Both the position numbers and the translations under genes were made by a program. Shown piece after piece: positions 1,425-35,858 of a stretch of DNA of 64,000 nucleotides. Origin of the DNA: Deltaproteobacteria bacterium. GTDB taxonomy: Bacteria; UBA10199; JACPAL01; JACOUP01. The stretch's first letter is position 1; each line of letters begins with the position of its first letter. Under the pieces are notes generated by a model. The model ran no database searches, had not been told where the DNA came from, and saw only the letters and a list, made by a program, of their open reading frames with translations. Location: positions 1,025,165 to 1,089,164 of the forward strand of contig JACOUP010000008.1 of the NCBI GenBank assembly GCA_016177765.1, in the 5' to 3' direction.

Positions 1425-3673
<2,249 letters not shown>

Positions 3674-3708
3674 GGATGGTTCGACTAAGCTCACCATGTC
3701 CGTGAATC

Positions 3709-4347
3709 ATGGACATCCTGAGCCAAGTCGAAGGGTCAACTTTTATGTCTGATTTTGTCGTCAAAAGGATTCACTCGCTCCTCGGGATTTTTCCGATCGG
3801 CGCTTTTTTGCTCCAACATTTCTTTTCCAATTCTTACGTCTTTATTTCCGCGCAGGCGTACAATGAACATTCGGAATTTCTGACCAGTCTGCCGATGGTG
3901 GAGCTGATTGAACTTTCCACGATTTACCTCCCGATTTTTTTGCACATTGTCCTGGGGCTGGCGATTGTTTACCGAGGGCGAAACAATGTCACTTCCTACA
4001 ACTATTTCCGTAACTGGATGTTCTTTCTGCAGCGGGCAACCGGGGTGATCGCCGTTGTTTTCATTGCGACCCACAGTTACACCACCCGGATTGCCACCTG
4101 GCTCGCCCACGAGGAGATGACCTTTCAGAAGATGAGCGACACGCTTCACCAGCCGTTCTGGTTCTGGTTTTATGCGATCGGGATCACGTCGGTCACCTTT
4201 CATTTTTGCAACGGGGTCTGGAGTTTCCTCGTGACCTGGGGGATTACCGTCGGCCCGAAGGCTCAGAAGGTTTCTTCCGCTGTCTCGATGTTTGGTTTTG
4301 TCCTGATGACGGCGTTAGGATTCGCAATTTTATTGAGGTTCGTTTAA
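3709..4347 (+). CDS. sdhC: Succinate dehydrogenase / fumarate reductase cytochrome b subunit
   Basis: Polytopic membrane protein directly upstream of sdhA with conserved His residues. Alternative start at 3745. Confidence 0.65.
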   Translation: MDILSQVEGSTFMSDFVVKRIHSLLGIFPIGAFLLQHFFSNSYVFISAQAYNEHSEFLTSLPMVELIELSTIYLPIFLHIVLGLAIVYRGRNNVTSYNYFRNWMFFLQRATGVIAVVFIATHSYTTRIATWLAHEEMTFQKMSDTLHQPFWFWFYAIGITSVTFHFCNGVWSFLVTWGITVGPKAQKVSSAVSMFGFVLMTALGFAILLRFV

Positions 4348-24016: not shown

Positions 24017-26101
24017 TTATCGTTTTCTCATCCTGCGGACTAGGGCAAGGCCCATACCGATCAGGATCATCCCGAAGCCCTGCATTCCAGGAGCGGCACT
24101 CCCGCCGATCGTGCAACCACAACCGCTATCCGCGGTCAGGGCTGGCAGACCGTCGCAGACGTCGCCGATCCCGTTCCCGTTGGCATCCGCCTGATCCGGA
24201 TTGGCGATGTTGCAGTTATCCGGTCCCTCCGTGCAGAGTCCTTCAATCGGGTCAACGCCGTCGCAGATGCCGTCGCCGTCGATATCCCCTTCACAGGCAT
24301 CGCCCAACCCTTCAATCCCGCCGGTATCCTCCTGCCCCTCGTTCTTGACGATGCGGCAGTTGTCCGGTCCCGTTTTACAGACGTTCGGGATCTCGGCCCC
24401 GCCGTCGCAGACCGCATCCAGATCGCAGTCGGAATTCAGGGCGCAGAGTCTTGGGTACAACGGAGAGGTGCACTCTTCATAATCATCCAGTCCGTCGCCG
24501 TCGGTATCGACCTTGTTCTTGTCGGTCCCGCAGAGGTCTTCATCAAAGTCGGTCAGGCCGTCGTTATCCAGGTCGGAAAGAGAAGTCGCCTGCACGCAGG
24601 CATCGCCGACGCCGTTTCCGTCCGTATCGGTCTGGTCCGGGTTCGGGACGTTGATACAGTTGTCCTGCCCGTTGTTCAAGCCGTCACCATCCGAGTCACA
24701 GGTCTCATCGTTCGGGAGACAGGCTGGGGCCCCGTTGCCCCCTCCACCACCGCCCCCCCCGGTGACAGCGATCGCCACAGGGAATGACTGGATATGGGAG
24801 ACGCCGTTGTCATCCTTCGTTTCGCACTCAATCGCCTGGTCTCCACCCGGTGTTGGGGCAAAACTGGTTTCAAAGATAATCGAACAGGTATCATCAGCCT
24901 GATTGGGGCAGACCGCCTCAACCGCTGTTGCCGAGCCGCCGCTTACCTTGATGCTGGAGGCAAACTGGGCGGTATAGGTGGCGCTGACAGCAATCCCTGT
25001 CTCTGTCGTGGTCACCGTCGGGGCACTGGAGACACAGTTCGGCACGTTGCTGCCACCCGGGTTAGTCCCTGTCGGGCAACCAGGTCGTGCTGGATCCGGT
25101 GTTGCTCCGGCCGCTTCGGCGGGGCATTGGTCTTCACAGTTCTTGACGCCGTCCCCATCGGTATCCCCCTGGTCGGCATCATCGGCCGCACAGCCGGTCC
25201 CGGGGGCCGCTATCGGGCAACCGGTCGCCGGATCAATCCGTTCCGTCGGGTTGGAACCGGGGCACTGGTCTACAGAATCCTCAACCCCATCTCCATCCGC
25301 ATCCGCAACACCTTCTTGCATAATAACAACGGAGGGGTCTAAAAACATCTTGGCACTCGTATATGGATTTCTTAAGCTGTCTACCGCCTGGGGTGCACCA
25401 TCCACGCAAACGATATGGTCTTTGACCCCATCTCCCTCTGGGACAAGAATCGTGAGGTAGGCCAAAGTATGGTAGTTTGAAGCCTCCCCCCGGATGTCAA
25501 AGACGCAACCCTCTGGGTTGGCGGTCAGGTACTCCATGGCATCAATCGTTGTCTTGGAGAGGAAACCGGAGATTGTCAACCCCGCTTTGGCGGTCCGACG
25601 ACAGTCCGCTGAAACACAGATATCATCCCCGACATTCTCCCCACTAATCACAAACGGTTCCGTAACAGTGACGGTGATCTCCTCATCCGTACAGTTGGGT
25701 GGAGTCCCGCCGGCCAATTCATCACGGGTAACAGTGTTTGGCTTTGTATCAAAAAAGACAACCGGCTTGACCGTGGTCAAGTCGGTATCTCCCTCAAAAC
25801 AATAGGTCTGGTTGTTGAAGTAGCCGATCGCTGTGGCCAGGTGATCCCCGTCAATGGCGCAGACATCCCTGGGGCCGCCGTCTTCACCGTCTCTGAAGAT
25901 GTTGGTTGCCCCATCGGCGCATTCGCCCTCTTCCAAGAAGGAGCTTACCTTTCCGACCGAGCTGAACTTCCCAATAAAGGAGTAGAGGCGGTTGAGAGGG
26001 GCCTTGATGAGATTAAACTCGAAGGCGTTCGCCTCTGGTTGCCCGATTAGTCCCAGCAGGATTGCCGAGATCATAATGACGCTAGATCGTTTAAGCTTCA
26101 T
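24017..26101 (-). CDS. Secreted calcium-binding thrombospondin type 3 repeat protein with C-terminal GCGC/TM/basic sorting tail
   Basis: Signal peptide MKLKRSSVIMISAILLGLIGQPEANA; multiple DxDxDGxxDxxD motifs; Gly8 run; C-terminus ...SGCGCTIGG...LIGMGLALVRRMRKR. Confidence 0.75.
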   Translation of the reverse strand: MKLKRSSVIMISAILLGLIGQPEANAFEFNLIKAPLNRLYSFIGKFSSVGKVSSFLEEGECADGATNIFRDGEDGGPRDVCAIDGDHLATAIGYFNNQTYCFEGDTDLTTVKPVVFFDTKPNTVTRDELAGGTPPNCTDEEITVTVTEPFVISGENVGDDICVSADCRRTAKAGLTISGFLSKTTIDAMEYLTANPEGCVFDIRGEASNYHTLAYLTILVPEGDGVKDHIVCVDGAPQAVDSLRNPYTSAKMFLDPSVVIMQEGVADADGDGVEDSVDQCPGSNPTERIDPATGCPIAAPGTGCAADDADQGDTDGDGVKNCEDQCPAEAAGATPDPARPGCPTGTNPGGSNVPNCVSSAPTVTTTETGIAVSATYTAQFASSIKVSGGSATAVEAVCPNQADDTCSIIFETSFAPTPGGDQAIECETKDDNGVSHIQSFPVAIAVTGGGGGGGGNGAPACLPNDETCDSDGDGLNNGQDNCINVPNPDQTDTDGNGVGDACVQATSLSDLDNDGLTDFDEDLCGTDKNKVDTDGDGLDDYEECTSPLYPRLCALNSDCDLDAVCDGGAEIPNVCKTGPDNCRIVKNEGQEDTGGIEGLGDACEGDIDGDGICDGVDPIEGLCTEGPDNCNIANPDQADANGNGIGDVCDGLPALTADSGCGCTIGGSAAPGMQGFGMILIGMGLALVRRMRKR

Positions 26102-26350
26102 GGTAGACTCCTTTGACAATGAATAGTTCATTGCTCTAACAGGATTATCGGAAAGGGCAGGGGAAGGTTGCTAAAAAAATTAAAGGACGAAGGCCGGATC
26201 GGCAGGGTCCTCTCCAGGACCTATTTAAGATGTATATAAAGGAGGGGGGGACATTTCTCCTAAAAACTAAAATTATTAGCAACTATGGTCCGGGGGGAAC
26301 GATAATAGGCATGAAACGGTTAAGCGGTCTTACTCTATAAGGAGGCAGTT

Positions 26351-27124
26351 ATGGCTGGTCCACAAGAATTGACGGTATCAACCTCGATGGTTCATGGAAC
26401 CGGTATGACCGGCTTTAACGATAGCCATGTGATGGGGACAACCGACCTGCCTCTTCAGACCTTGGCCATCGATCTGAATGTTGGCGAAGGTCCCTTAGGA
26501 GAAAATACTTTTGCAGGTCTGGAGTTTGGTAGATTCGGTTTGGTTGGTGATGGAGGGTTTGGCCTTTTTGAGGCCCGTTTTGGTGGTCAGCAGGCCAGAC
26601 CCAAAGGATGGGGTGCCCGGTTTTTAGGGTTTTTTGAAACCGGTTTCCGATACTACCCTGATGATTTAATCAAAACGACAACGGTTCCAGGGAAGACAAC
26701 TGTGGCACCGGCGGCTGAGGGGACTGTTACTGATCCCCAGGATGCCTCTTATGACATGGGTGCCAGGACTCAATCGGGTGGACGGGTACCGGCGCCCGGG
26801 GGACGCCAGCCGGCAGGAGCCGGTGCGGGGACAGCCCCAGAAACCCGGACCTATTCTCAGGCAACGACGGCTAAGGACAGATCAACGACAACGACTGATA
26901 CCGCAAAACCATGGAATTTGGGGGTGGTCGGTGCGGTCGATCTAGGGTTTTTTGGTGATGTTGTGTCAATTACCGTGAGGCCTGAGGTGGGTGGTGGTAT
27001 CGCCGCTGGCGGGAGCACCGGGTTCGAATTGCAAGGACAGTACGGAGCGATGTTAGTCCTTGGGTTTAACCTTGATGGCGGCTCTTCAGGGGGGGCGACA
27101 GGAGGGGGCACGCCCGACCTCTAG
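26351..27124 (+). CDS. Hypothetical Gly/Thr-rich protein
   Basis: AGGAGG ribosome-binding site; no recognisable domain. Confidence 0.4.
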   Translation: MAGPQELTVSTSMVHGTGMTGFNDSHVMGTTDLPLQTLAIDLNVGEGPLGENTFAGLEFGRFGLVGDGGFGLFEARFGGQQARPKGWGARFLGFFETGFRYYPDDLIKTTTVPGKTTVAPAAEGTVTDPQDASYDMGARTQSGGRVPAPGGRQPAGAGAGTAPETRTYSQATTAKDRSTTTTDTAKPWNLGVVGAVDLGFFGDVVSITVRPEVGGGIAAGGSTGFELQGQYGAMLVLGFNLDGGSSGGATGGGTPDL

Positions 27125-27450: not shown

Positions 27451-28515
27451 ATGGCGACAGCGGCAGAAATTACAGGGCGTTTAAGGGGGACGATGGCCGA
27501 TGGTTACTTGAGCCAACCCGAGTGGAGTAGCTTCAAGGAAGGGATCAAGACCTCTTGGTCGGATGGGGGTCGGGAAGGGCTCAATGATTTTATTGGGGAG
27601 GTTGCGGGACAACCACACTGGGTGGTGGATCCTGCCATTTTGGAAAAATGGAACAAGGGGACAGGTCAGGGGATTGATAGTGATCCTGTTCGGGTTATTC
27701 AGGGACGGCAAGAACAGGCCTTGAGGATTAAGGGATTGTTGGAAGAAAAAGTGGGCGACAAGGTTTTGAGTGAGGCCGATTGGGATGGTTTAAAGAGTCA
27801 GATCGGTTCTGTTTGGGACAAGGGGGGGTTGGCGGGGATTATTTTATTCTTGGCAGATAACGGGGATCGATGGACGATTGAAGGAAGCTTAAAGACAAGG
27901 ATTGAAGAGAAGCTGGTCAGTAAGGGGTTTGTTCAGGCCTCTTTGTTGGGTGGGATCAAGGTGCATGAGGAGGCGGCACCGCCAGCCGCTCCGGCGCCTC
28001 CTCCCGCTCCTGCTGATGGGGGATATGATTTTGAGGTGCTTGATCTGAGTGATGATAGGGCCCCGGCAGAACCGGCACCTCCGGCAACGTCGAGAATGCG
28101 AGGAGGGGATCCTGAACCTCCTCCAGCGCCTCCATCACCCGCCGCCGGACGACCCGTGAGAGGGACAACCGCTTGTAGTGAGGCCGTCAAAGGGCGGGTG
28201 AATGATGCCCTGTCCCCCTTGTTGGGGCCCCATGGGTCGCTGAAGGATATCAAAGCCAAGTCTCAATTCCAACTCCTCCATGGAAAGATAGATATCGAGT
28301 TTCATATCCCGGAGGCGGAATCCGATGGGACAATGTCTATTGAGGTCGATGTGTCTCAGTTAAAAGGACCACAGGATCACACTTCCTTTGGGGAAGCGGT
28401 TCTGGGAAAGCTACGGGCCACTGCCAAGTTGACCTCTGTGGGGACTCCAGCGGGGGAAGGAACCTGTTTCTACAAAGTTCCGGTACCGGTTGAAGGGAGT
28501 ACTTCAGGGTATTAA
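27451..28515 (+). CDS. Paralog A of a tandem 4-gene family: novel ~170-aa N-terminal domain, Pro/Ala linker, unique C-terminal domain
   Basis: AAAGGG ribosome-binding site. Conserved MADGYLSQ...WSDGG...WDKGGLAGIILFL N-domain shared with the three downstream genes. Confidence 0.7.
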   Translation: MATAAEITGRLRGTMADGYLSQPEWSSFKEGIKTSWSDGGREGLNDFIGEVAGQPHWVVDPAILEKWNKGTGQGIDSDPVRVIQGRQEQALRIKGLLEEKVGDKVLSEADWDGLKSQIGSVWDKGGLAGIILFLADNGDRWTIEGSLKTRIEEKLVSKGFVQASLLGGIKVHEEAAPPAAPAPPPAPADGGYDFEVLDLSDDRAPAEPAPPATSRMRGGDPEPPPAPPSPAAGRPVRGTTACSEAVKGRVNDALSPLLGPHGSLKDIKAKSQFQLLHGKIDIEFHIPEAESDGTMSIEVDVSQLKGPQDHTSFGEAVLGKLRATAKLTSVGTPAGEGTCFYKVPVPVEGSTSGY

Positions 28516-30687
28516 ATGATGACCTCCATTAATGAAAAACTGACACAGGCAATGGCGGATGGTTATCTGAGCCAATCCGAGTGGGATAGCTTCAAAGAAG
28601 AGATCAAGTCCTCTTGGTCGGATGGGGGTCAGGAAGGGCTCAATAGTTTTATCAGTGATGTTGCCGATCGTCCGAATTGGGTAGTCGATCCTGCCATTTT
28701 GGAGAAGTGGGGCAAGGGGACAGGTCAAGGGATTGAGGGGGGACCTGTTTCGGAGATCCAGAAACGGCAGGACCAGGCCGCCCGTGTCAAGGCCTTGCTG
28801 GAAGAGAAGGTCGGGGACAAGGTTCTGAGTGAGACCGATTGGGACAGTTTAAAGGGAGAGATCGGTTCTGTTTGGGACAAAGGGGGGTTGGCCGGGATTA
28901 TTTTATTCTTGGCAGGTGATCATGATAATCACTGGGAGATTGAGGGGAATTTAAAGACAAGGATTCAAGAGAAGTTAGTCAAGCCTGGGTTTGTGAGTAT
29001 CGCACTTTTGAGTGGGATCAGGGTGCATGAGGAACCGGCCGCTCCACCACCACCGCCTGAACCTGCGGCGGAACCGGCACCAGAACCGATTCTTCCGCCT
29101 GCCGCAGGAACAGCGAGGCCAGACAGTCTTACTATTGATGAAGAAACCGGTCCGGGGGCGGGATCGCCTCCACCACCGGCCGCGCCACCTGCTCCTCCCG
29201 AGGCGGCCGCTCCACCACCTACTCCTCCTCCCCCTGCAACGGCTGAACGGCCCCTCAAAGCGGGCGAGGCGAGGGTCAAATGGCAGATTACCGACGGGGA
29301 TGGACACCCCCTGGCAGGGGTGACAATCACGTTGGGGGGGGAGGCCTCCGATGTTGAAGGAATGCCCCCTTATTCTGACCTTGTCGATGGAAATCCTCTC
29401 ACAACGGATAAAGACGGTTTCGCCTCCATCGACCTCCCCACAGGGCTCTTAAAATACACGACAGGGAAAAAGGGTTATCAGACCTATACCGTTGACGATG
29501 GGGCAGATGTAGATTTGGCGCCGGGCAAGATCTATACCCGTAATGTCCGGATGCCGCCGGTTGCCCATGTCCCGATTGATTGGAGGGTGACCGACCTCTT
29601 GAGGGAGACCTACCTGGAGGGGGCGACGGTTACCGTGGAAGGGACCTCCAGCGGCGACGGGGAAAGTTATGGTCCTGTTGTCTATCATACGGGTAAAGAG
29701 GGTCGGCTTCAGCGTGAGGAGGGTGGCAGAACAATCGCTCCGGCAACTATCCCTACCGGGGATTGTCGGGTCAAGGTCCACAAAGAGGGGTATCGGTCCT
29801 TTCCCGACGCGAGGATCACTATTGAAGGGGACAAGGTTGTCCGGCAATTTGCCCTGGTGGAGGAGGGACTCCCGTTACCGTCTGAGCTTGACGGGCAGAA
29901 CGTCTTTCGGTTGATTCGGGATACGGAGCTCCTTGTCCCGACAAATCGTGGATTCATCGGGAAAAAAAAGGACGATGACAAACGGAAGGCAATTAAGGAT
30001 CTGGAGAAGACAAGTAGCCTCCTGGGGATCGCCTTTGAAAAAACAGAGGCCCTAAGGCATGGAACGGTTGCCGCCGATCTTCTCCGGCTTGCCGAAGAGG
30101 TGGATTCCCTCCTTGTGGATCTCTACGATTCGATCCTGGATGCCGACGCGATTGTCCAGTGTCACCGGAGGCGCCTGAATCGGGAGGAGACGTCGTCGGA
30201 GCTGCAATACCTCCTCGCCTCGGCGCTGGATGTCTTGGGGGGACAACAGATATCAAGGGCCTCTATATTCCAGAAGTATGCCGAGGCGGTCCTTTATTAC
30301 AAAAAGTTGGGAGAAAAGGACCCTCATTACGACGAGGCCCAAAAGGCGTTAGGAAAGTTGGGGTATGTTGCCTTTCTGCCGAAGGTGACCTCCCTCTTTA
30401 ATCAGATCAATGCTGGAACATGGTCATCCATAAGGGAGACACTGCAGAGACAAGGCGGCCCTCAACAGGTAGAGGTGGGCCTTCGTGTGGATGATGATGG
30501 TTTTGTGGACGAGGTTGAGACCGATCCGAGGGCCTACCCTTTGGAAGCATTCTTCAGGGGGCGGAATATCGGGGTCTTCAGAAACCCTGAGAATGGAGGA
30601 AGGAAGGAAGAATCCTACCCCCTCGCCTTTGATATTGATTTTTCTGGGGATACCCCGAGGCTGATCTTGCCGGATATAGGGCCTTAG
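28516..30687 (+). CDS. Paralog B: same N-domain, Pro/Ala linker, carboxypeptidase-regulatory-like beta domains and a TPR-like helical tail
   Basis: About 85% DNA identity to paralog A across the N-domain. G8 tract at 29334-29341. Confidence 0.7.
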   Translation: MMTSINEKLTQAMADGYLSQSEWDSFKEEIKSSWSDGGQEGLNSFISDVADRPNWVVDPAILEKWGKGTGQGIEGGPVSEIQKRQDQAARVKALLEEKVGDKVLSETDWDSLKGEIGSVWDKGGLAGIILFLAGDHDNHWEIEGNLKTRIQEKLVKPGFVSIALLSGIRVHEEPAAPPPPPEPAAEPAPEPILPPAAGTARPDSLTIDEETGPGAGSPPPPAAPPAPPEAAAPPPTPPPPATAERPLKAGEARVKWQITDGDGHPLAGVTITLGGEASDVEGMPPYSDLVDGNPLTTDKDGFASIDLPTGLLKYTTGKKGYQTYTVDDGADVDLAPGKIYTRNVRMPPVAHVPIDWRVTDLLRETYLEGATVTVEGTSSGDGESYGPVVYHTGKEGRLQREEGGRTIAPATIPTGDCRVKVHKEGYRSFPDARITIEGDKVVRQFALVEEGLPLPSELDGQNVFRLIRDTELLVPTNRGFIGKKKDDDKRKAIKDLEKTSSLLGIAFEKTEALRHGTVAADLLRLAEEVDSLLVDLYDSILDADAIVQCHRRRLNREETSSELQYLLASALDVLGGQQISRASIFQKYAEAVLYYKKLGEKDPHYDEAQKALGKLGYVAFLPKVTSLFNQINAGTWSSIRETLQRQGGPQQVEVGLRVDDDGFVDEVETDPRAYPLEAFFRGRNIGVFRNPENGGRKEESYPLAFDIDFSGDTPRLILPDIGP

Positions 30688-30740
30688 TCCCCCTCACCCC
30701 AACCCTCTCCCGCAAGGGGAGAGGGGGAATTTGTCAATTT
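30688..30740 (+). terminator. GC-rich hairpin terminator after paralog B
   Basis: CCCTCTCCC-gcaa-GGGGAGAGGG with outer arms TCCCCCTC / GAGGGGGA and a T-rich tail. Confidence 0.55.
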
Positions 30741-30783: not shown

Positions 30784-32253
30784 ATGGCCCCCTCCGGTGT
30801 TTCTGCCACTGTTTATGACAGTCTATTCGAGAAGATGTCAGACAATCATTTTACCTCGTCTGAGTGGGATGGTTTGAAGAATTCAATCAAGGATCACTGG
30901 TCGGATGGGGGTCAAGAAGGTCTGGATCATTTCATCAGGGAGGCGGCTTCTCGGGCCGGTTGGGTGGTTGACCTTCCGGTGGTGGAGAAATGGAGGGGGG
31001 CAATCGGTTACGGTCTCGACGAGAAGTCTGTTCATACGGTCTGGGTGAGGAGTCTGCTGGAAGAGAAGGTCGGGGACAAGGGTGATTCACCTAAGGTTTT
31101 GAGTGAGGTGGACTGGGATGACCTGAAAGATGAGATCAGTTCGGTCTGGGACAAGGGGGGGTTGGCGGGGATCCGGTTATTTCTCTCCGGGTGTGGGGGA
31201 CGATGGACGATCGAGGGGAGTCTCAAGACAAGGATCCAGACCAAACTGGTTGATACAAATTTTATTGAAGCCGCTTTATTGAGTGGGATTGCGGTCTATA
31301 CACCACCCCCTCCACCGGTTCCTGAACCTGGGCCGCCAGAACCCCCGGCGGTAAGGCCTCCGGCACCACCCCTGCCCCCTGCTGGTCGCTTGGCCCCAGT
31401 CCTGCCCGGTGGGCCGTTGCCACGCAAACCGGTAGTCCGGTTATCCCTCCATCTGGTGGATAAATCCAACAAACCGATTTCAGGGGCGGAGGTCACCTTT
31501 GGCGGGACGGCGACGGATGGGACGGCGTATTCCCTCCTGGGGAAGGTCACGACGGACAGAAACGGACGCTTGAAGCGGGCCGAATTTCATCCCGGGAAGG
31601 TCACTCTGCATATTTCCAAAGAGGGGTACCAGCCGGTCGATCAGGAATTGGAGATTAGGCCGAAGATGACTCCGGAGATGACGATTGATCTCCAGAGACT
31701 GATCGACCTGGAGGGAGAGGCCCTTTTTGCCGAGGTGAAAGAGATCCTGGCCCAAGGGAAGAGGTCAGAGAGGGGTCCGCCGGCCGTTGTTGAGGAGGCG
31801 ATGGTGGCGTTGCGGGAAGGGGAGGAGAGGCTCAAGGCCTTTCTGGCAAAGGTGGCTCACCCAAAGACCGATTCGAGGCAGGATCGATCCCTCCGTGAAG
31901 AAGGGGAAGAACTCTTGAAACGTCTCCTTTTTGGTCTCGCCCAGCTCTATGAAAAGCAGGAAAAATACGACGAGGCGATCGCTATCTACCGGCAACGGTC
32001 AAAAGAGGGTTTCTTCCGTTATCTGATCGCGGGGGACCTTGAGGCCAAGGGGGATTTGGTTAAGGGGGACAAGCCGGCCGCTGTTGCCTCCCGTCGAAAG
32101 GCCTACACAGAGGCAATTGCCGAGTACCGGGCCTACGTCGACTGGCATGACCGGCAGGGGGCGAGACTGGAAGGGATCTCCGTGAGGGAGGAGGCGGAAG
32201 AGGCGATAGCCCGGCTCCAGAAGGCCCTTGCGGCAAAGAGGCCCAACGAATAA
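30784..32253 (+). CDS. Paralog C: same N-domain (with a 15-nt palindromic-element insertion), Pro-rich linker, carboxypeptidase-regulatory-like domain and TPR-like tail
   Basis: MSDNHFTSSEW... N-domain; GDSPK insertion at 31078-31092 relative to A, B and D. Confidence 0.7.
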   Translation: MAPSGVSATVYDSLFEKMSDNHFTSSEWDGLKNSIKDHWSDGGQEGLDHFIREAASRAGWVVDLPVVEKWRGAIGYGLDEKSVHTVWVRSLLEEKVGDKGDSPKVLSEVDWDDLKDEISSVWDKGGLAGIRLFLSGCGGRWTIEGSLKTRIQTKLVDTNFIEAALLSGIAVYTPPPPPVPEPGPPEPPAVRPPAPPLPPAGRLAPVLPGGPLPRKPVVRLSLHLVDKSNKPISGAEVTFGGTATDGTAYSLLGKVTTDRNGRLKRAEFHPGKVTLHISKEGYQPVDQELEIRPKMTPEMTIDLQRLIDLEGEALFAEVKEILAQGKRSERGPPAVVEEAMVALREGEERLKAFLAKVAHPKTDSRQDRSLREEGEELLKRLLFGLAQLYEKQEKYDEAIAIYRQRSKEGFFRYLIAGDLEAKGDLVKGDKPAAVASRRKAYTEAIAEYRAYVDWHDRQGARLEGISVREEAEEAIARLQKALAAKRPNE

Positions 32254-32453
32254 ATTCGTGGGCTAATTTAAAACAATTCCTCTGGAATTCCGGAAGGAAT
32301 TGTCATTGGATTAGCCGCCGAATTTATTCGGTCGGCCAATGGGAGTGGACACCCTGAGCTTGTCGAAGGGTCATTTTGAGTTTGTCAACAGACTGCTAGT
32401 CATTTCAGGCACAACTCCCCAGTTTTTCAGTCGATAATACTGATGAGGTTCTT

Positions 32454-33647
32454 ATGTCACTTCGAGACGTTGTCTCCTCTATCCCCCTTTCTGCGGTTGC
32501 CGGTCCACCGGCCCCAGGGACCGGCAGGGTTATCGGCCGTGTCCTGGATGCTGAGACCCGCAGGCCTGTCGGGGGGGCGGTTCTACAATTTAGGCGGGTG
32601 GGGCCTCCCCCCACTGAAGTAGCCGCTGCCGATTCCCCACCTCCTCAGACCTTTCACGATGCCTTAGTCGATAAGATGTCGTTCGATAATTATCTGAGCC
32701 AGATGGAGTGGGATGATCTGAGGGATAGAATCAGGGCCGATTGGGATAGTGGGGGTCGGGAGGGGCTGGATCTCTTTATCCGCGAGGCGGCTTCTCGGCC
32801 GAAATGGGTGGTTTCACTCCCGGTAGTGGAGAAATGGAAGAGGGCTGTGGGGTATGGTTTAGATGAAAAAGCGGTGAATACAGTCTGGGTGAGGAGTCTG
32901 CTGGAGTGGGAGGTTGCGGACGCTTTCCTGGGTGAGGCGGACTGGGATAACCTGAAAGATGAGATCGGTTCGGTCTGGGACAAAGGGGGGTTGGCGGGGA
33001 TCCGGATATTTTTAGCGGGGTGCGATGATCGGTGGGACATTCAGGAGAGTTTAAAGGCGAGGATTCAAGCAAGACTGGTGGCAACGGGGTTTATTGAGGC
33101 GGATTTATTGAAGGGGATCCGTACGTCGAAATCGGAACCACCGAGATCAATGCCGGCCGGTGGTGCCGCTGAGGCCGAAGAGGCGGCGGATGAGTTTTCT
33201 CGTGCCGGGAGTGACTTTGAGGATGGGCTGGCCGAGGCGGCAGAGGCGAGGAGGAGTGGAGCTCTCGAAGGACCGAGGGTCCTTGACTGTGACGCGCTGG
33301 CGGCGGAGGTGGGACGGATTATGGGGACTCTGGAAGGAGATTTTGGTGAGGCGATACGGGAGTTAAGGATGTCAGAGGCCACCATTGATGGGGAGATCAC
33401 GGTCCATATCCCCTTTTCGCCGATCTCGCCGCCCGTTCCGCCCCGCATGATCATCCGGCAGGCCCGTCTTTTTTCCCCAAAAAGGGTTGATGAGGCGGCG
33501 GTTCAAACATTTAAGGAGAGGGTGCGGGGGATTCTCAACAATGCCTTTGAATCCGAGGGGCTTCAGGCGAAAGACGAAAGAGGATGCCTTGTCGCTTGGA
33601 CGATCAAGCTTCCCGAACGGACGCGTGTTGATGGTGATTCGGAATAA
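32454..33647 (+). CDS. Paralog D: N-terminal leader carrying linker and carboxypeptidase-regulatory-like remnants, same conserved domain, acidic unique C-terminus
   Basis: The conserved domain starts at MSFDNYLSQMEW (Met at 32676). The upstream 74 codons resemble a shuffled cassette fragment. Confidence 0.6.
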   Translation: MSLRDVVSSIPLSAVAGPPAPGTGRVIGRVLDAETRRPVGGAVLQFRRVGPPPTEVAAADSPPPQTFHDALVDKMSFDNYLSQMEWDDLRDRIRADWDSGGREGLDLFIREAASRPKWVVSLPVVEKWKRAVGYGLDEKAVNTVWVRSLLEWEVADAFLGEADWDNLKDEIGSVWDKGGLAGIRIFLAGCDDRWDIQESLKARIQARLVATGFIEADLLKGIRTSKSEPPRSMPAGGAAEAEEAADEFSRAGSDFEDGLAEAAEARRSGALEGPRVLDCDALAAEVGRIMGTLEGDFGEAIRELRMSEATIDGEITVHIPFSPISPPVPPRMIIRQARLFSPKRVDEAAVQTFKERVRGILNNAFESEGLQAKDERGCLVAWTIKLPERTRVDGDSE

Positions 33648-34569
33648 ATCTTTTATAAAACAGTCCAAACCTTAAGCCCCGATCCGAAACCAAGACTTTC
33701 TCAATCCGGTATTGTTCCATCACCTTCTGAAGGATCATGGCACCAGCCAGTAGGGTATCGGCCCGTTCGGGGACCATCCCTGTGATTTTTTTGCGATCGA
33801 CGATTGTCTTTTGAGCCAATTCTTTTGTCATCCGGTCCAGTTCGGTTTTGGTGATGATTGACCCCTGAATTTTAGCAGGATCCCAGAGGGGAAGTTTCTG
33901 GTTGATCGCCGAGAGGGTTGTTGCGGTGCCGGCGAGGGCAACGAGGGTCAACTGAGAGCTGCCATCCGATCTTCCTCCCTTGCCGGCAAGACCATTTTCT
34001 ATAATGTCGTAAGCATATTTTATCTCTGTCGGCCGGACTGGATCCGACGTCAAGAACCGCTCCGTCAGCTCCACACAACCGAGTGGCAGGCTGACCGCCC
34101 CGTCGACCGAAATAATCTCCGTGCTCCCGCCGCCGATATCAAGGGCCATCAGGTTTTTGTGTCGATCCCCAAAATCTTTCAGGACTGAAGCGTACGAAAG
34201 ACAGGCCTCCTCCTCCCCGGAAATAATTTCAATCCGGATCCCGGTTTTTTCTAAAACCTCTTGGGTGAACTCTTCCGCATTCCGGGCCCGGCGAAAGGCG
34301 GCGGTACCGACGGCGGCGATCTCTTTCACTTGATGGTGATCGCAGAGGGTCTTGTATTCCTTTAAGGCGGCGAGCGTCCGTTTCATGGCGGCGGGCGGAA
34401 AGAGTTGCAAGGCATGGAGTTGTTGGCCAAGGCGGGTGATTCGCGCTTCATCCCGGATGATCCGTAAATCCCCATTTCTCCCCCTTTGCAAAAGGGGGGT
34501 TGGGGGGATTTTATAATCGGCAATCAGGAGGAGAACGGTATTCGTGCCGATATCAATCGCGGCGTTCAT
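33604..34569 (-). CDS. ppx: Exopolyphosphatase / guanosine pentaphosphate phosphohydrolase (Ppx/GppA family)
   Basis: MNAAIDIGTNTVLL N-terminus of the ASKHA fold; ATGA coupling with tolB. Confidence 0.8.
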   Translation of the reverse strand: MNAAIDIGTNTVLLLIADYKIPPTPLLQRGRNGDLRIIRDEARITRLGQQLHALQLFPPAAMKRTLAALKEYKTLCDHHQVKEIAAVGTAAFRRARNAEEFTQEVLEKTGIRIEIISGEEEACLSYASVLKDFGDRHKNLMALDIGGGSTEIISVDGAVSLPLGCVELTERFLTSDPVRPTEIKYAYDIIENGLAGKGGRSDGSSQLTLVALAGTATTLSAINQKLPLWDPAKIQGSIITKTELDRMTKELAQKTIVDRKKITGMVPERADTLLAGAMILQKVMEQYRIEKVLVSDRGLRFGLFYKRFIPNHHQHASVREA

Positions 34570-35858
34570 TTTGCGATCCAATTGGACCAGTCCGGATGGA
34601 TCCCGTTTCCTTTCGGCAGAATGGAGACCTGATTTCCTCCATCCGCCATCATCACCATGATCTGCGAACGGCCGGTCCGGGTCGAACTGAAGGCGATGTA
34701 GTGTCCATTCGGGGCCCAAGAGGGGCTTTCGTTGTTGCCGGAATCGGAGGTCAGCCGTTGGATCATCGAGCCATCGGTGTTCATGATGAAGAGATCAAAG
34801 ACCCCTTCATCCCGCCCCTGAAACACGATCTTGTCTCCCTTGGGGGACCAGTCCGGGTTGTCGTTGTGATGACCGACAAAGGTCAGGCGGTGGATATCCC
34901 CGCCATCGGCATCCGCCGTAAAAATATGGAGACGCCCCTCCCGCTCCGAGGCAAAGACCAGTTGACGGCCATCGGGCGACCAGGAGGGGTTGATGTCAAT
35001 CCCGAAGGCGCTGGTGAGTAAACGGATCTTCCCCCCCTGAAGGTTGTAGAGATGGAGGTCAATCTCGTCCCCCATCGCCGTGGCGGCGGCAATCCCCCTG
35101 CCGTTTGGCGCCCAGGCCGGGGTGAGGGTGACACTTTTGTTGTTGGTGATCTTCTGCGGTCTCCCGCCGCTGGCAGGAATGACGTGGAGTTCCGGAAAAC
35201 CGTTGACGTAGCCCGAATAAACCAGCCGTGTCCCGGAAGGGTCCCACGAGGGGGAGATGCTGATCGTCTTGGAGGCGGTGATTTGACGGAGATTGCCGCC
35301 ATCCACATCGGTGACAAAGATCTCCTTGTTCTTGCCGACGACGCTCGCAAAGGCGATCCGGCTGGAAAACGGCCCCCGAACGCCCGTCAAGACCTCCATC
35401 ACCTCATCCACAAAGTGGTGGGCGACAACACCCGCCTCATTCAGCTTGGCGGTGTACCGATGGCCGACCAGTTGTTTCCCGAGGGCCGGGTCGAAGAGGC
35501 GCATCTCCACCGAGATGACATCTTTTTTGTAGGAAAAGGCCCCCTTGATGAGCGCCTGCGTGCCGATCAGGTTCCAGGCGGCAAACCGGACTGTCTCCGC
35601 GGTAAAATTCTTTTCATCCTGACGGGGAAAGGAATCGGGATTCATCACCTCGAAGAGACCGGCGATTTGCAGGTCTTTCCGAATAATCTCCGGCAAGGTC
35701 TCGGCCCATTCCTCGGGATCACGGGAACCGGTGTTGATCAGGTCCGGGACCGCAATCGGGAACTTTTTTTCCAGAGGCTGATCGACCATGATGTAAATGC
35801 GGGCCTCCGCCACCGCTCCGAAGAGCAGGAAAAAAACGAGCCAGAATCGTTGCCTCAC
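34566..35858 (-). CDS. tolB: Tol-Pal system beta-propeller protein TolB
   Basis: Signal peptide plus repeated WSPDG beta-propeller blades; 430 aa. Confidence 0.88.
   Translation of the reverse strand: MRQRFWLVFFLLFGAVAEARIYIMVDQPLEKKFPIAVPDLINTGSRDPEEWAETLPEIIRKDLQIAGLFEVMNPDSFPRQDEKNFTAETVRFAAWNLIGTQALIKGAFSYKKDVISVEMRLFDPALGKQLVGHRYTAKLNEAGVVAHHFVDEVMEVLTGVRGPFSSRIAFASVVGKNKEIFVTDVDGGNLRQITASKTISISPSWDPSGTRLVYSGYVNGFPELHVIPASGGRPQKITNNKSVTLTPAWAPNGRGIAAATAMGDEIDLHLYNLQGGKIRLLTSAFGIDINPSWSPDGRQLVFASEREGRLHIFTADADGGDIHRLTFVGHHNDNPDWSPKGDKIVFQGRDEGVFDLFIMNTDGSMIQRLTSDSGNNESPSWAPNGHYIAFSSTRTGRSQIMVMMADGGNQVSILPKGNGIHPDWSNWIAK

Follow-up and report, generated by a model that had tools for sequence, protein, structure and literature searches.

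A hairpin-like CarboxypepD_reg fragment in the leader of a tandem paralog from an uncultured deltaproteobacterium, a possible remnant of an ancient in-frame fusion or deletion

Introduction

How does one member of a tandem gene family come to carry, ahead of the region that it shares with its neighbours, a leader that is not homologous to anything in them? The question is raised by paralog D, the fourth of four plus-strand paralogs (A to D; locus tags HYS22_07580 to 07595) in a metagenome-assembled genome (MAG) filed as 'Deltaproteobacteria bacterium', which stand in tandem within a 64,000-nucleotide stretch of contig JACOUP010000008.1 (hereafter the window, to which all coordinates refer). 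All four proteins share an N-terminal head of ~165 residues, and the open reading frame (ORF) of D (32454-33647, plus strand, 397 aa) begins with an in-frame leader before that head. An earlier inspection of the letters (hereafter the sequence-only reading) had taken the leader as a shuffled cassette fragment, its middle segment strongly resembling the first strand of the carboxypeptidase-regulatory-like domains of B and C, and the array as one that is evolving by module shuffling. Our analysis points to an older history, in which the leader carries a fragment resembling the first β-hairpin of the CarboxypepD_reg family, possibly the trace of an in-frame fusion or deletion.

Results

The leader of D comprises about 65 codons

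The leader is in frame, and the peptides quoted from it in the sequence-only reading are exact, but its length had been given as 74 codons, with the conserved domain starting at 32676 (Met75). Homology of D to A, B and C already begins at Thr66 (32649), ten codons earlier: 'TFHDALVDKMS' of D aligns with 'TVYDSLFEKMS' of C, and Met75 is an internal methionine that is invariant in all four paralogs. In an AlphaFold2 model of D the first helix begins at residue 67. Together, the onset of homology and that of the first helix therefore limit the leader to ~65 codons (32454-32648, plus strand), none of them homologous to A-C.

Three parts can be distinguished, all on the plus strand. Residues 1-23, MSLRDVVSSIPLSAVAGPPAPGT (32454-32522), comprise a weakly hydrophobic stretch and, after it, a short run rich in Pro; residues 24-46, GRVIGRVLDAETRRPVGGAVLQF (32523-32591), fit the first β-hairpin of the CarboxypepD_reg family (PF13620, PF13715), as detailed below; and residues 47-65, RRVGPPPTEVAAADSPPPQ (32592-32648), are a second Pro-rich stretch that links this stub to the head. 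The AlphaFold2 model, based on an 18-sequence family alignment, assigned residues 1-62 a predicted local distance difference test score (pLDDT) of 39-53 and no secondary structure; judged from this model, the leader is probably a low-complexity, intrinsically disordered N-terminal extension. It has no match at E ≤ 10 among PDB sequences. When the in-frame codons preceding the ATG were compared with head-domain ends by Smith-Waterman alignment with shuffles, the scores were at chance level or attributable to Pro content, and nothing upstream of A, B or C resembled the stretch encoding residues 47-65 at the nucleotide level. Separately, the NCBIfam model TIGR04268, which describes FxSxx-COOH precursors of ribosomally synthesized and post-translationally modified peptides, was placed on residues 8-39 (32475-32570) with 17.9 bits and an E value of 0.0027, against a cut-off of 28. 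The leader is not a peptide in its own right and lacks a C-terminal FxSxx, and this match is treated as chance.

Residues 24-46 fit the first hairpin of the CarboxypepD_reg family

As the sequence-only reading had proposed, B and C carry CarboxypepD_reg domains (PF13620, 36.9 bits in B and 37.7 bits in C), each behind a Pro-rich linker, and their first hairpins (29269-29334 in B and 31432-31500 in C, plus strand) lie near the positions given there. These hairpins served as comparison partners for the middle segment of the leader. HMMER filters drop matches above roughly E = 0.1-0.25, and a match of 10-12 bits would be invisible when a fragment is searched alone. The contribution of the segment was therefore measured in context, by a graft test in which it replaced the first hairpin of the C domain (104 residues) and the resulting sequence was scored against PF13620 and PF13715.

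Native C scored 42.1 bits with PF13620 and 26.5 bits with PF13715, and deletion of its first hairpin lowered these values to 27.6 and 19.6 bits. The grafted B hairpin gave 43.6 and 27.3 bits, and the grafted D segment 39.6 and 27.2 bits. The D graft is hence worth +12.0 bits with PF13620 and +7.6 bits with PF13715, compared with +14.5 (C) and +16 (B) for the genuine hairpins with PF13620. Its alignment ran over PF13620 positions 2-82 and used the grafted segment itself (positions 2-24). When the D segment was shuffled, six versions gave 27.1-28.0 bits, their alignments leaving the graft out, and none of 100 more reached E ≤ 5e-7 (~30.5 bits), so that 0 of 106 composition-matched shuffles produced a gain and composition as such added nothing. 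Ten other grafts stayed at 26.7-27.0 bits; they comprised the linker islands of A and B, a piece of the C linker, two further parts of the leader (residues 1-23 and 47-69) and five natural segments. The two linker 'islands' (FEVLDLSDDRAP and SLTIDEETGPG) had been considered as sister relics of the D segment, and were dropped since their grafts add nothing. A 12-bit gain has a probability of at most 2^-12 per register, or at most ~0.013 over the ~52 registers of the leader.

From these scores, the motif-level resemblance of residues 24-46 is quite probably real, and as far as the profiles can tell it is a resemblance to the CarboxypepD_reg family and not specifically to B or C. Compared with that family (CarboxypepD_reg and CarbopepD_reg_2, PF13620 and PF13715, a transthyretin-like β-sandwich), the segment nearly matches the B and C hairpins in score, covers the first-hairpin feature (PF13620 positions about 2-24) and has a Pro-rich stretch immediately ahead of it, as in B and C. 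Unlike a CarboxypepD_reg domain, it has no predicted structure, and the leader comes nowhere near the PF13620 gathering score of 32.3 bits over ~80 residues. The remaining strands of the sandwich were not found after residue 46, where the Pro-rich stretch and then the helical head follow, nor in the other two frames, which contain stops and no motif. With 23 of ~80 residues, the stub is a fragment and not a domain.

Pairwise and nucleotide comparisons do not single out B or C

The strong resemblance that had been claimed to the first strand of B and C holds at the level of the family profile, where the graft raises the score from 27.6 to 39.6 bits, but not in pairwise comparison. Smith-Waterman alignment of residues 24-47 with C found the right register (ETRRPVGGAVLQF / KSNKPISGAEVTF) at p = 0.12 only, and that with B gave p = 0.78. 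A 20-aa island (residues 22-41) reached p = 0.08, 0.40 and 0.89 against A, B and C, respectively, and the whole leader, again with shuffles, scored at chance level or in a manner explained by Pro content. When the leader was searched against the window with tblastn, the B linker came top only without composition correction; the corrected E value was 3.1, and reverse-strand non-coding frames did equally well.

A nucleotide alignment of the leader with the B and C junctions, which had been suggested as a check, gave no signal. By MAFFT and blastn, 32454-32675 has no nucleotide similarity to 29200-29360, to 31390-31550 or to the rest of the window, and the best non-self matches of the leader in blastn searches of the whole window (words 7 and 11) had E values of 0.17-0.26 and lay outside the array. 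For B and C as donors, there is accordingly no nucleotide or pairwise protein similarity beyond Pro runs, the outcome that had been named as counting against the proposal, and both a B or C donor and a recent event are therefore unsupported. Given this lack of similarity, together with the lack of leader relatives (see below) and of a domain remnant in any frame, the comparisons indicate that the event is old or the donor foreign.

The leader is likely to be translated

The ATG at 32454 has a Shine-Dalgarno-like GAGG (32445-32448, plus strand) 5 nt upstream, the best such motif among the four paralog starts. The sole other in-frame start upstream of the head is the GTG of codon 49 (32598-32600, plus strand), which is abutted by AGGCGG with no usable spacing. 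Because homology to A-C begins at 32649, D must start upstream of that position and not at 32676, and the NCBI MAG protein and the gene calls on contigs from the Logan collection all record the 397-aa product. The codon-usage (coding) score of the leader is -0.09, and those of the Pro linkers of B and C are -0.32 and -0.41; the references are an in-frame mean of 0.52 (5th percentile 0.28) and an out-of-frame mean of -0.68 (95th percentile -0.29). The leader falls between these two distributions and is similar to the Pro linkers, whose coding status is beyond doubt. At the three codon positions the GC fractions of the leader (GC1/GC2/GC3 0.77/0.64/0.55) follow the same GC1 > GC2 > GC3 order as those of the B and C linkers (0.86/0.78/0.39 and 0.88/0.71/0.53), and overall GC rises from 55% in the window to 65% in the leader and 68-71% in the linkers. 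As RNA, the leader matches no Rfam family at threshold, and its fold energy is ordinary (z -0.44). On these sequence features, translation of the leader from the ATG at 32454 seems likely. An ancestral start of D homologous to that of C, lost by an ATG-to-ATT change, was also considered and rejected, as local alignments of the leader with the regions upstream of A, B and C gave p 0.26-0.85.

The leader is invariant in metagenomes and has no detected relatives

The leader and 139 upstream bases are 100% identical in seven of seven Logan contigs anchored directly on the window. An eighth D-bearing contig, L006, is identical from 32236 onward, and the leader itself is therefore the same in all eight independent metagenome contigs carrying D. 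A word-index search with the leader among 5.8 billion proteins returned one candidate, which did not score. Word-index searches for orthologs of D returned only D itself and A, and with the alignment as query nothing, not even the query's own sequences. No relatives turned up when GTDB species genomes and JGI metagenomes were scanned with patterns. When 1.84 billion representative proteins were searched exhaustively with a profile, 20 clusters were recovered at E < 1e-3, four of which are A to D; none is close to D. With the leader identical in eight contigs and no leader relatives, nothing in these data shows change at this site, and the claim that the array is evolving by module shuffling finds no footing here.

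Some distant family members have N-terminal extensions of 25-30 residues, Pro-rich in the case of P0007, and in P0015 and P0018 a hydrophobic segment and then a Pro/Thr/Ala-rich spacer stand ahead of the head. Compared with the leaders of P0007, P0015 and P0018, the N-terminus of D is not significantly similar to any; a motif S-I-x-x-S-x-V, seen by eye in D, P0015 and P0018, was set aside as not significant (p 0.09-0.12).

A palindromic repeat and an alternative junction lie upstream of D

Population data had been proposed as a place to look for alternative junctions. One was seen, at 32236, 218 bp upstream of the start codon and ahead of the promoter region of D, but none within the leader. 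The junction coincides with the edge of a 109-nt stretch (32236-32344) that recurs in at least one other locus of the same samples; the stretch contains a 98-nt near-perfect palindrome (32240-32337), which overlaps the final five codons and the stop of C. The Logan contigs that carry C all end at 32265, and of the eight that carry D seven start at 32315, positions that are expected at k = 31 from a 109-nt stretch shared with another locus. In L006 (SRR12113429), by contrast with these, the 3' end of an M16-peptidase-like gene and GGTTCGACAAGCTCACCATGTCC are joined to 32236-34783 at 100% identity. The added GGTTCGACAAGCTCACCATGTCC pairs with 32346-32372 of the window, an orphan right arm of an outer hairpin resembling repetitive extragenic palindromic (REP) elements, whose left arm is present in L006 and absent from the window; the pairing completes a nested hairpin (L006:420-610, z -8.8). 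L006 could represent a variant strain or a k = 31 chimera, or it may indicate a second arrangement beside the MAG join, and the adjacency of D to C may be variable or mis-joined.

A search of GTDB genomes and JGI metagenomes with the palindrome core gave no matches. Elsewhere in the window, a complete outer REP-like hairpin stands at 3675-3737 (GGTTCGACTAAGCTCACCATGTCC ... GGACATCCTGAGCCAAGTCGAAGGGTC), just past an ORF ending at 3673 and without the inner palindrome, a sign that such intergenic repeats may form a family scattered over this genome. A sub-threshold Rfam match to the Acido-Lenti-1 small RNA on the left half of the palindrome (32243-32289; 21.4 bits, gathering score 37, E 0.015) probably reflects the hairpin and nothing more. 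The B-C spacer has a GC-rich hairpin of its own directly after B (CCCTCTCCC-GCAA-GGGGAGAGGG, 30697-30735), and the breaks of several Logan contigs fall at differing points no more than ~20 bases away.

The array belongs to a rare head-tail family

Paralog A (27451-28515, 354 aa) abuts B (28516-30687, 723 aa), while spacers of 96 bp and 200 bp separate B from C (30784-32253, 489 aa) and C from D; neither spacer holds a plus-strand ORF of at least 60 aa. Head identity is 72% between A and B, 64% between C and D and 46-52% for the cross pairs. The conserved head of D (residues 66-232; 32649-33149, plus strand) is common to A, B and C and has no Pfam or NCBIfam match. It is modelled by AlphaFold2 as all-helical with pLDDT > 90, and a fold search with the D model against the PDB gave no significant match (best E 1.4). 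A motif [ED]W-D-x-[LF]K-x-x-I-x-x-x-W-[SD]-x-GG-x-x-G[LI] occurs twice in the head (32676-33100 in D, with equivalents in A-C), as EWDDLRDRIRADWDSGGREGL and DWDNLKDEIGSVWDKGGLAGI in D, and gives the appearance of an internal duplication.

Behind the heads of A-C stand a Pro-rich linker and then a tail; in D, unlike in A-C, an acidic Ala/Glu-rich stretch lies between head and tail. The tails are mostly unrelated across A-D, and only those of B and C are related to each other (30% identity, E 2e-5). That A and D have tails of the same type, discordant with their heads, had been suspected by eye and was discarded, since BLASTP finds no similarity between the two tails. A Pfam scan of the array returned only CarboxypepD_reg and tetratricopeptide repeat (TPR)-type matches and recognised no toxin domain.

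Two further matches of the head profile, P0007 and P0011, come from the same MAG, bringing the paralogs in this genome to six, HYS22_03785 and HYS22_06070 among them. Judging from the database searches, the head family is very rare, unannotated and restricted to a few groundwater MAGs. The distant paralog P0011 (HYS22_06070) has an HEVGH (HExxH, zinc-metallopeptidase-like) motif in its tail, a sequence feature which hints that some tails of the family may be enzymes or effectors. Upstream of the array, a minus-strand gene (24017-26131) encodes a 704-aa protein that abounds in thrombospondin type-3-like Asp repeats and has a hydrophobic, basic C-terminal tail (…GMILIGMGLALVRRMRKR), and adjoining it is a plus-strand Gly/Thr-rich ORF of 257 aa (26351-27124) without a family match; both are on the same Logan contigs (L009, L016) as A-C.

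Discussion

We favour, with what we judge to be an even chance of being right, the explanation that the leader of D is a disordered extension which holds a fossil junction, a Pro run followed by a first CarboxypepD_reg hairpin, from an old in-frame fusion or deletion, and which has no folded function now. The event would have joined the start of a CarboxypepD_reg-containing segment in frame to the D head, and the rest of that domain would have been lost. That segment may have come from a paralog since lost, at the point where its linker met its tail, or from an unrelated gene with CarboxypepD_reg at its 5' end, and the data fit either. The order of Pro run and hairpin in the D leader is the same as in B and C. 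As a 23-residue hairpin cannot fold as a domain, the leader would at present serve as a flexible spacer at most. Of the recombination between tails and heads that the sequence-only reading had inferred, a past rearrangement survives as the best explanation of a hairpin before a head, but not its assignment to B or C nor its recency.

Several observations weigh against this explanation. Its statistical support comes down to one short motif, with a conservative p of at most ~0.01 once the registers are counted. In standalone Pfam searches, the 74-, 38- and 25-aa leader pieces and the whole of D gave no PF13620 match at E ≤ 10; this silence probably arises as the ~10-11 bits of the fragment lie below the HMMER filter, and the corresponding pieces of B and C, 29 residues long, reach 14.0 and 13.5 bits when searched alone. 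The coding score of the leader is intermediate, at -0.09 against an in-frame 5th percentile of 0.28, and by an estimate from base composition a 64-codon open frame at 65-70% GC would arise about 1 time in 4 without selection. Neither a donor sequence nor, in the collections searched, an ortholog of D was identified.

It could be that the resemblance is fortuitous, the start of D having moved to an upstream ATG such that a GC-rich former 5' untranslated region is now translated, with a coincidental G-x-V-x-D...P-x-G-A-V. The non-significant pairwise comparisons with B and C, the missing standalone Pfam match, the lack of leader relatives and a composition and coding score atypical for the genes of this genome all agree with chance, as does P0007, whose Pro-rich leader in the same genome has no such motif. 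We nevertheless consider chance unlikely, given a 12-bit in-register gain seen with two related profiles, when none of the 106 shuffles gained 3 bits and none of the ten other segments gained at all. Moreover, the matched family is the very one found in two neighbouring paralogs, and the homology to the A, B and C upstream regions that would mark an ancestral 5' untranslated region is not there. A genuine stub might instead lie outside the protein, if D started at the GTG at 32598 and 32454-32597 were untranslated 5' sequence holding a fragment of a decaying pseudogene, a possibility that overlaps our favoured explanation in origin. It would accommodate the intermediate coding score, the predicted disorder and the fact that such an open frame is not improbable in GC-rich DNA, and the 17-residue pre-domain tail left by that start would be comparable to the 9 residues in C. 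What makes it doubtful is the AGGCGG abutting the GTG without a spacer, whereas the GAGG stands at the canonical 5 nt from the ATG at 32454, together with the recorded gene calls of 397 aa and a codon-position GC like that of the coding linkers.

Two rivals and a broader version of the recombination reading concern what the leader does or how the locus moves. The conserved heads and unrelated tails of A-D, the Pro-run and hairpin order shared with B and C and the repeat-bounded alternative left junction of D in one sample could be taken to mean that B or C tails have recently recombined, or still recombine, with the D head, in an actively shuffled set of modules. Yet the leader has no nucleotide similarity within the window, the protein similarity of its hairpin is at chance, it is 100% identical in eight samples and the alternative junction, at 32236, falls outside it; we give this possibility very little credence. 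The leader might also be an N-terminal targeting or anchoring element, composed of a weak hydrophobic segment and a Pro-rich spacer, which would send D to another compartment than A-C. P0015 and P0018 begin in this manner, with a hydrophobic segment and a Pro/Thr/Ala-rich spacer ahead of the head, and the leader maximum of the 11-aa Kyte-Doolittle mean, 1.86 at residues 6-16 of D (VVSSIPLSAVA), may be set beside their 2.49 and 2.03. However, the similarity of the D N-terminus to the P0015 and P0018 leaders is not significant (p 0.09-0.12), its n-region has no net positive charge (R4/D5), the hydrophobic stretch is short and interrupted by Ser and Pro, and no signal-type NCBIfam model matches, all of which renders a targeting role quite improbable. 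The features looked for, by eye and hydropathy only, were those of Sec or twin-arginine translocation (Tat) signal peptides, namely a positively charged n-region, a hydrophobic h-region of 10-15 residues and a cleavage motif, with S/T-R-R-x-F-L-K for Tat; T35-R-R-P of the leader has no more than eight apolar or neutral residues after it. Finally, it is distinctly unlikely, though somewhat less so, that the stub marks where a tail once recombined with a head in a polymorphic protein family, very rare and so far undescribed, with a helical head and exchangeable tails, in which the upstream palindromic repeat would be the moving machinery or its substrate.

Among known systems, the closest analogy, and it is offered as such, is with the orphan cdiA-CT and Rhs-CT modules (PMC3150448, PMC3967940) of contact-dependent growth inhibition (CDI) and rearrangement hotspot (Rhs) loci. 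Fragments in orphan cdiA-CT/cdiI modules keep a short piece of the neighbouring module, a proposed recombination site; the kept piece is a stub of the conserved part, the VENN-encoding region, before the tail and has high nucleotide identity to the main gene, and these modules lack translation signals and are followed by an immunity gene (PMC3150448). Like the polymorphic toxin loci, the present array has a conserved N-terminal part, with heads 46-72% identical, and variable C-terminal modules. Unlike in those loci, the polarity in D is opposite, with a tail-type stub ahead of a complete head gene, the stub has no nucleotide identity to its neighbours and does have a Shine-Dalgarno motif and an ATG, and there are neither small immunity-like genes between A and D nor a recognised toxin domain. 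These differences are decisive against membership. Domain remnants left by gene fusion or deletion are a general phenomenon in multidomain paralog families. D resembles such cases in having a sub-domain fragment, unable to fold alone, in a disordered extension at a gene boundary, and differs from them in that no donor, ortholog or intermediate is at hand for reconstructing the event. The leader stub is probably an evolutionary scar, and as such belongs to a kind that is already known in general terms.

Taken alone, the leader carries little weight: it is probably a scar, the protein is hypothetical and comes from the MAG of an uncultured deltaproteobacterium, and there is no sign of present function. 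Its analysis corrects the domain boundary and the start-site reasoning for D, and suggests that at least one rearrangement with a CarboxypepD_reg module has touched a head gene in this family. Of more interest than the leader are the rare head-tail family itself and the repeat-bounded junction beside D; should sister genomes be found, the locus could reveal how head-tail families diversify.

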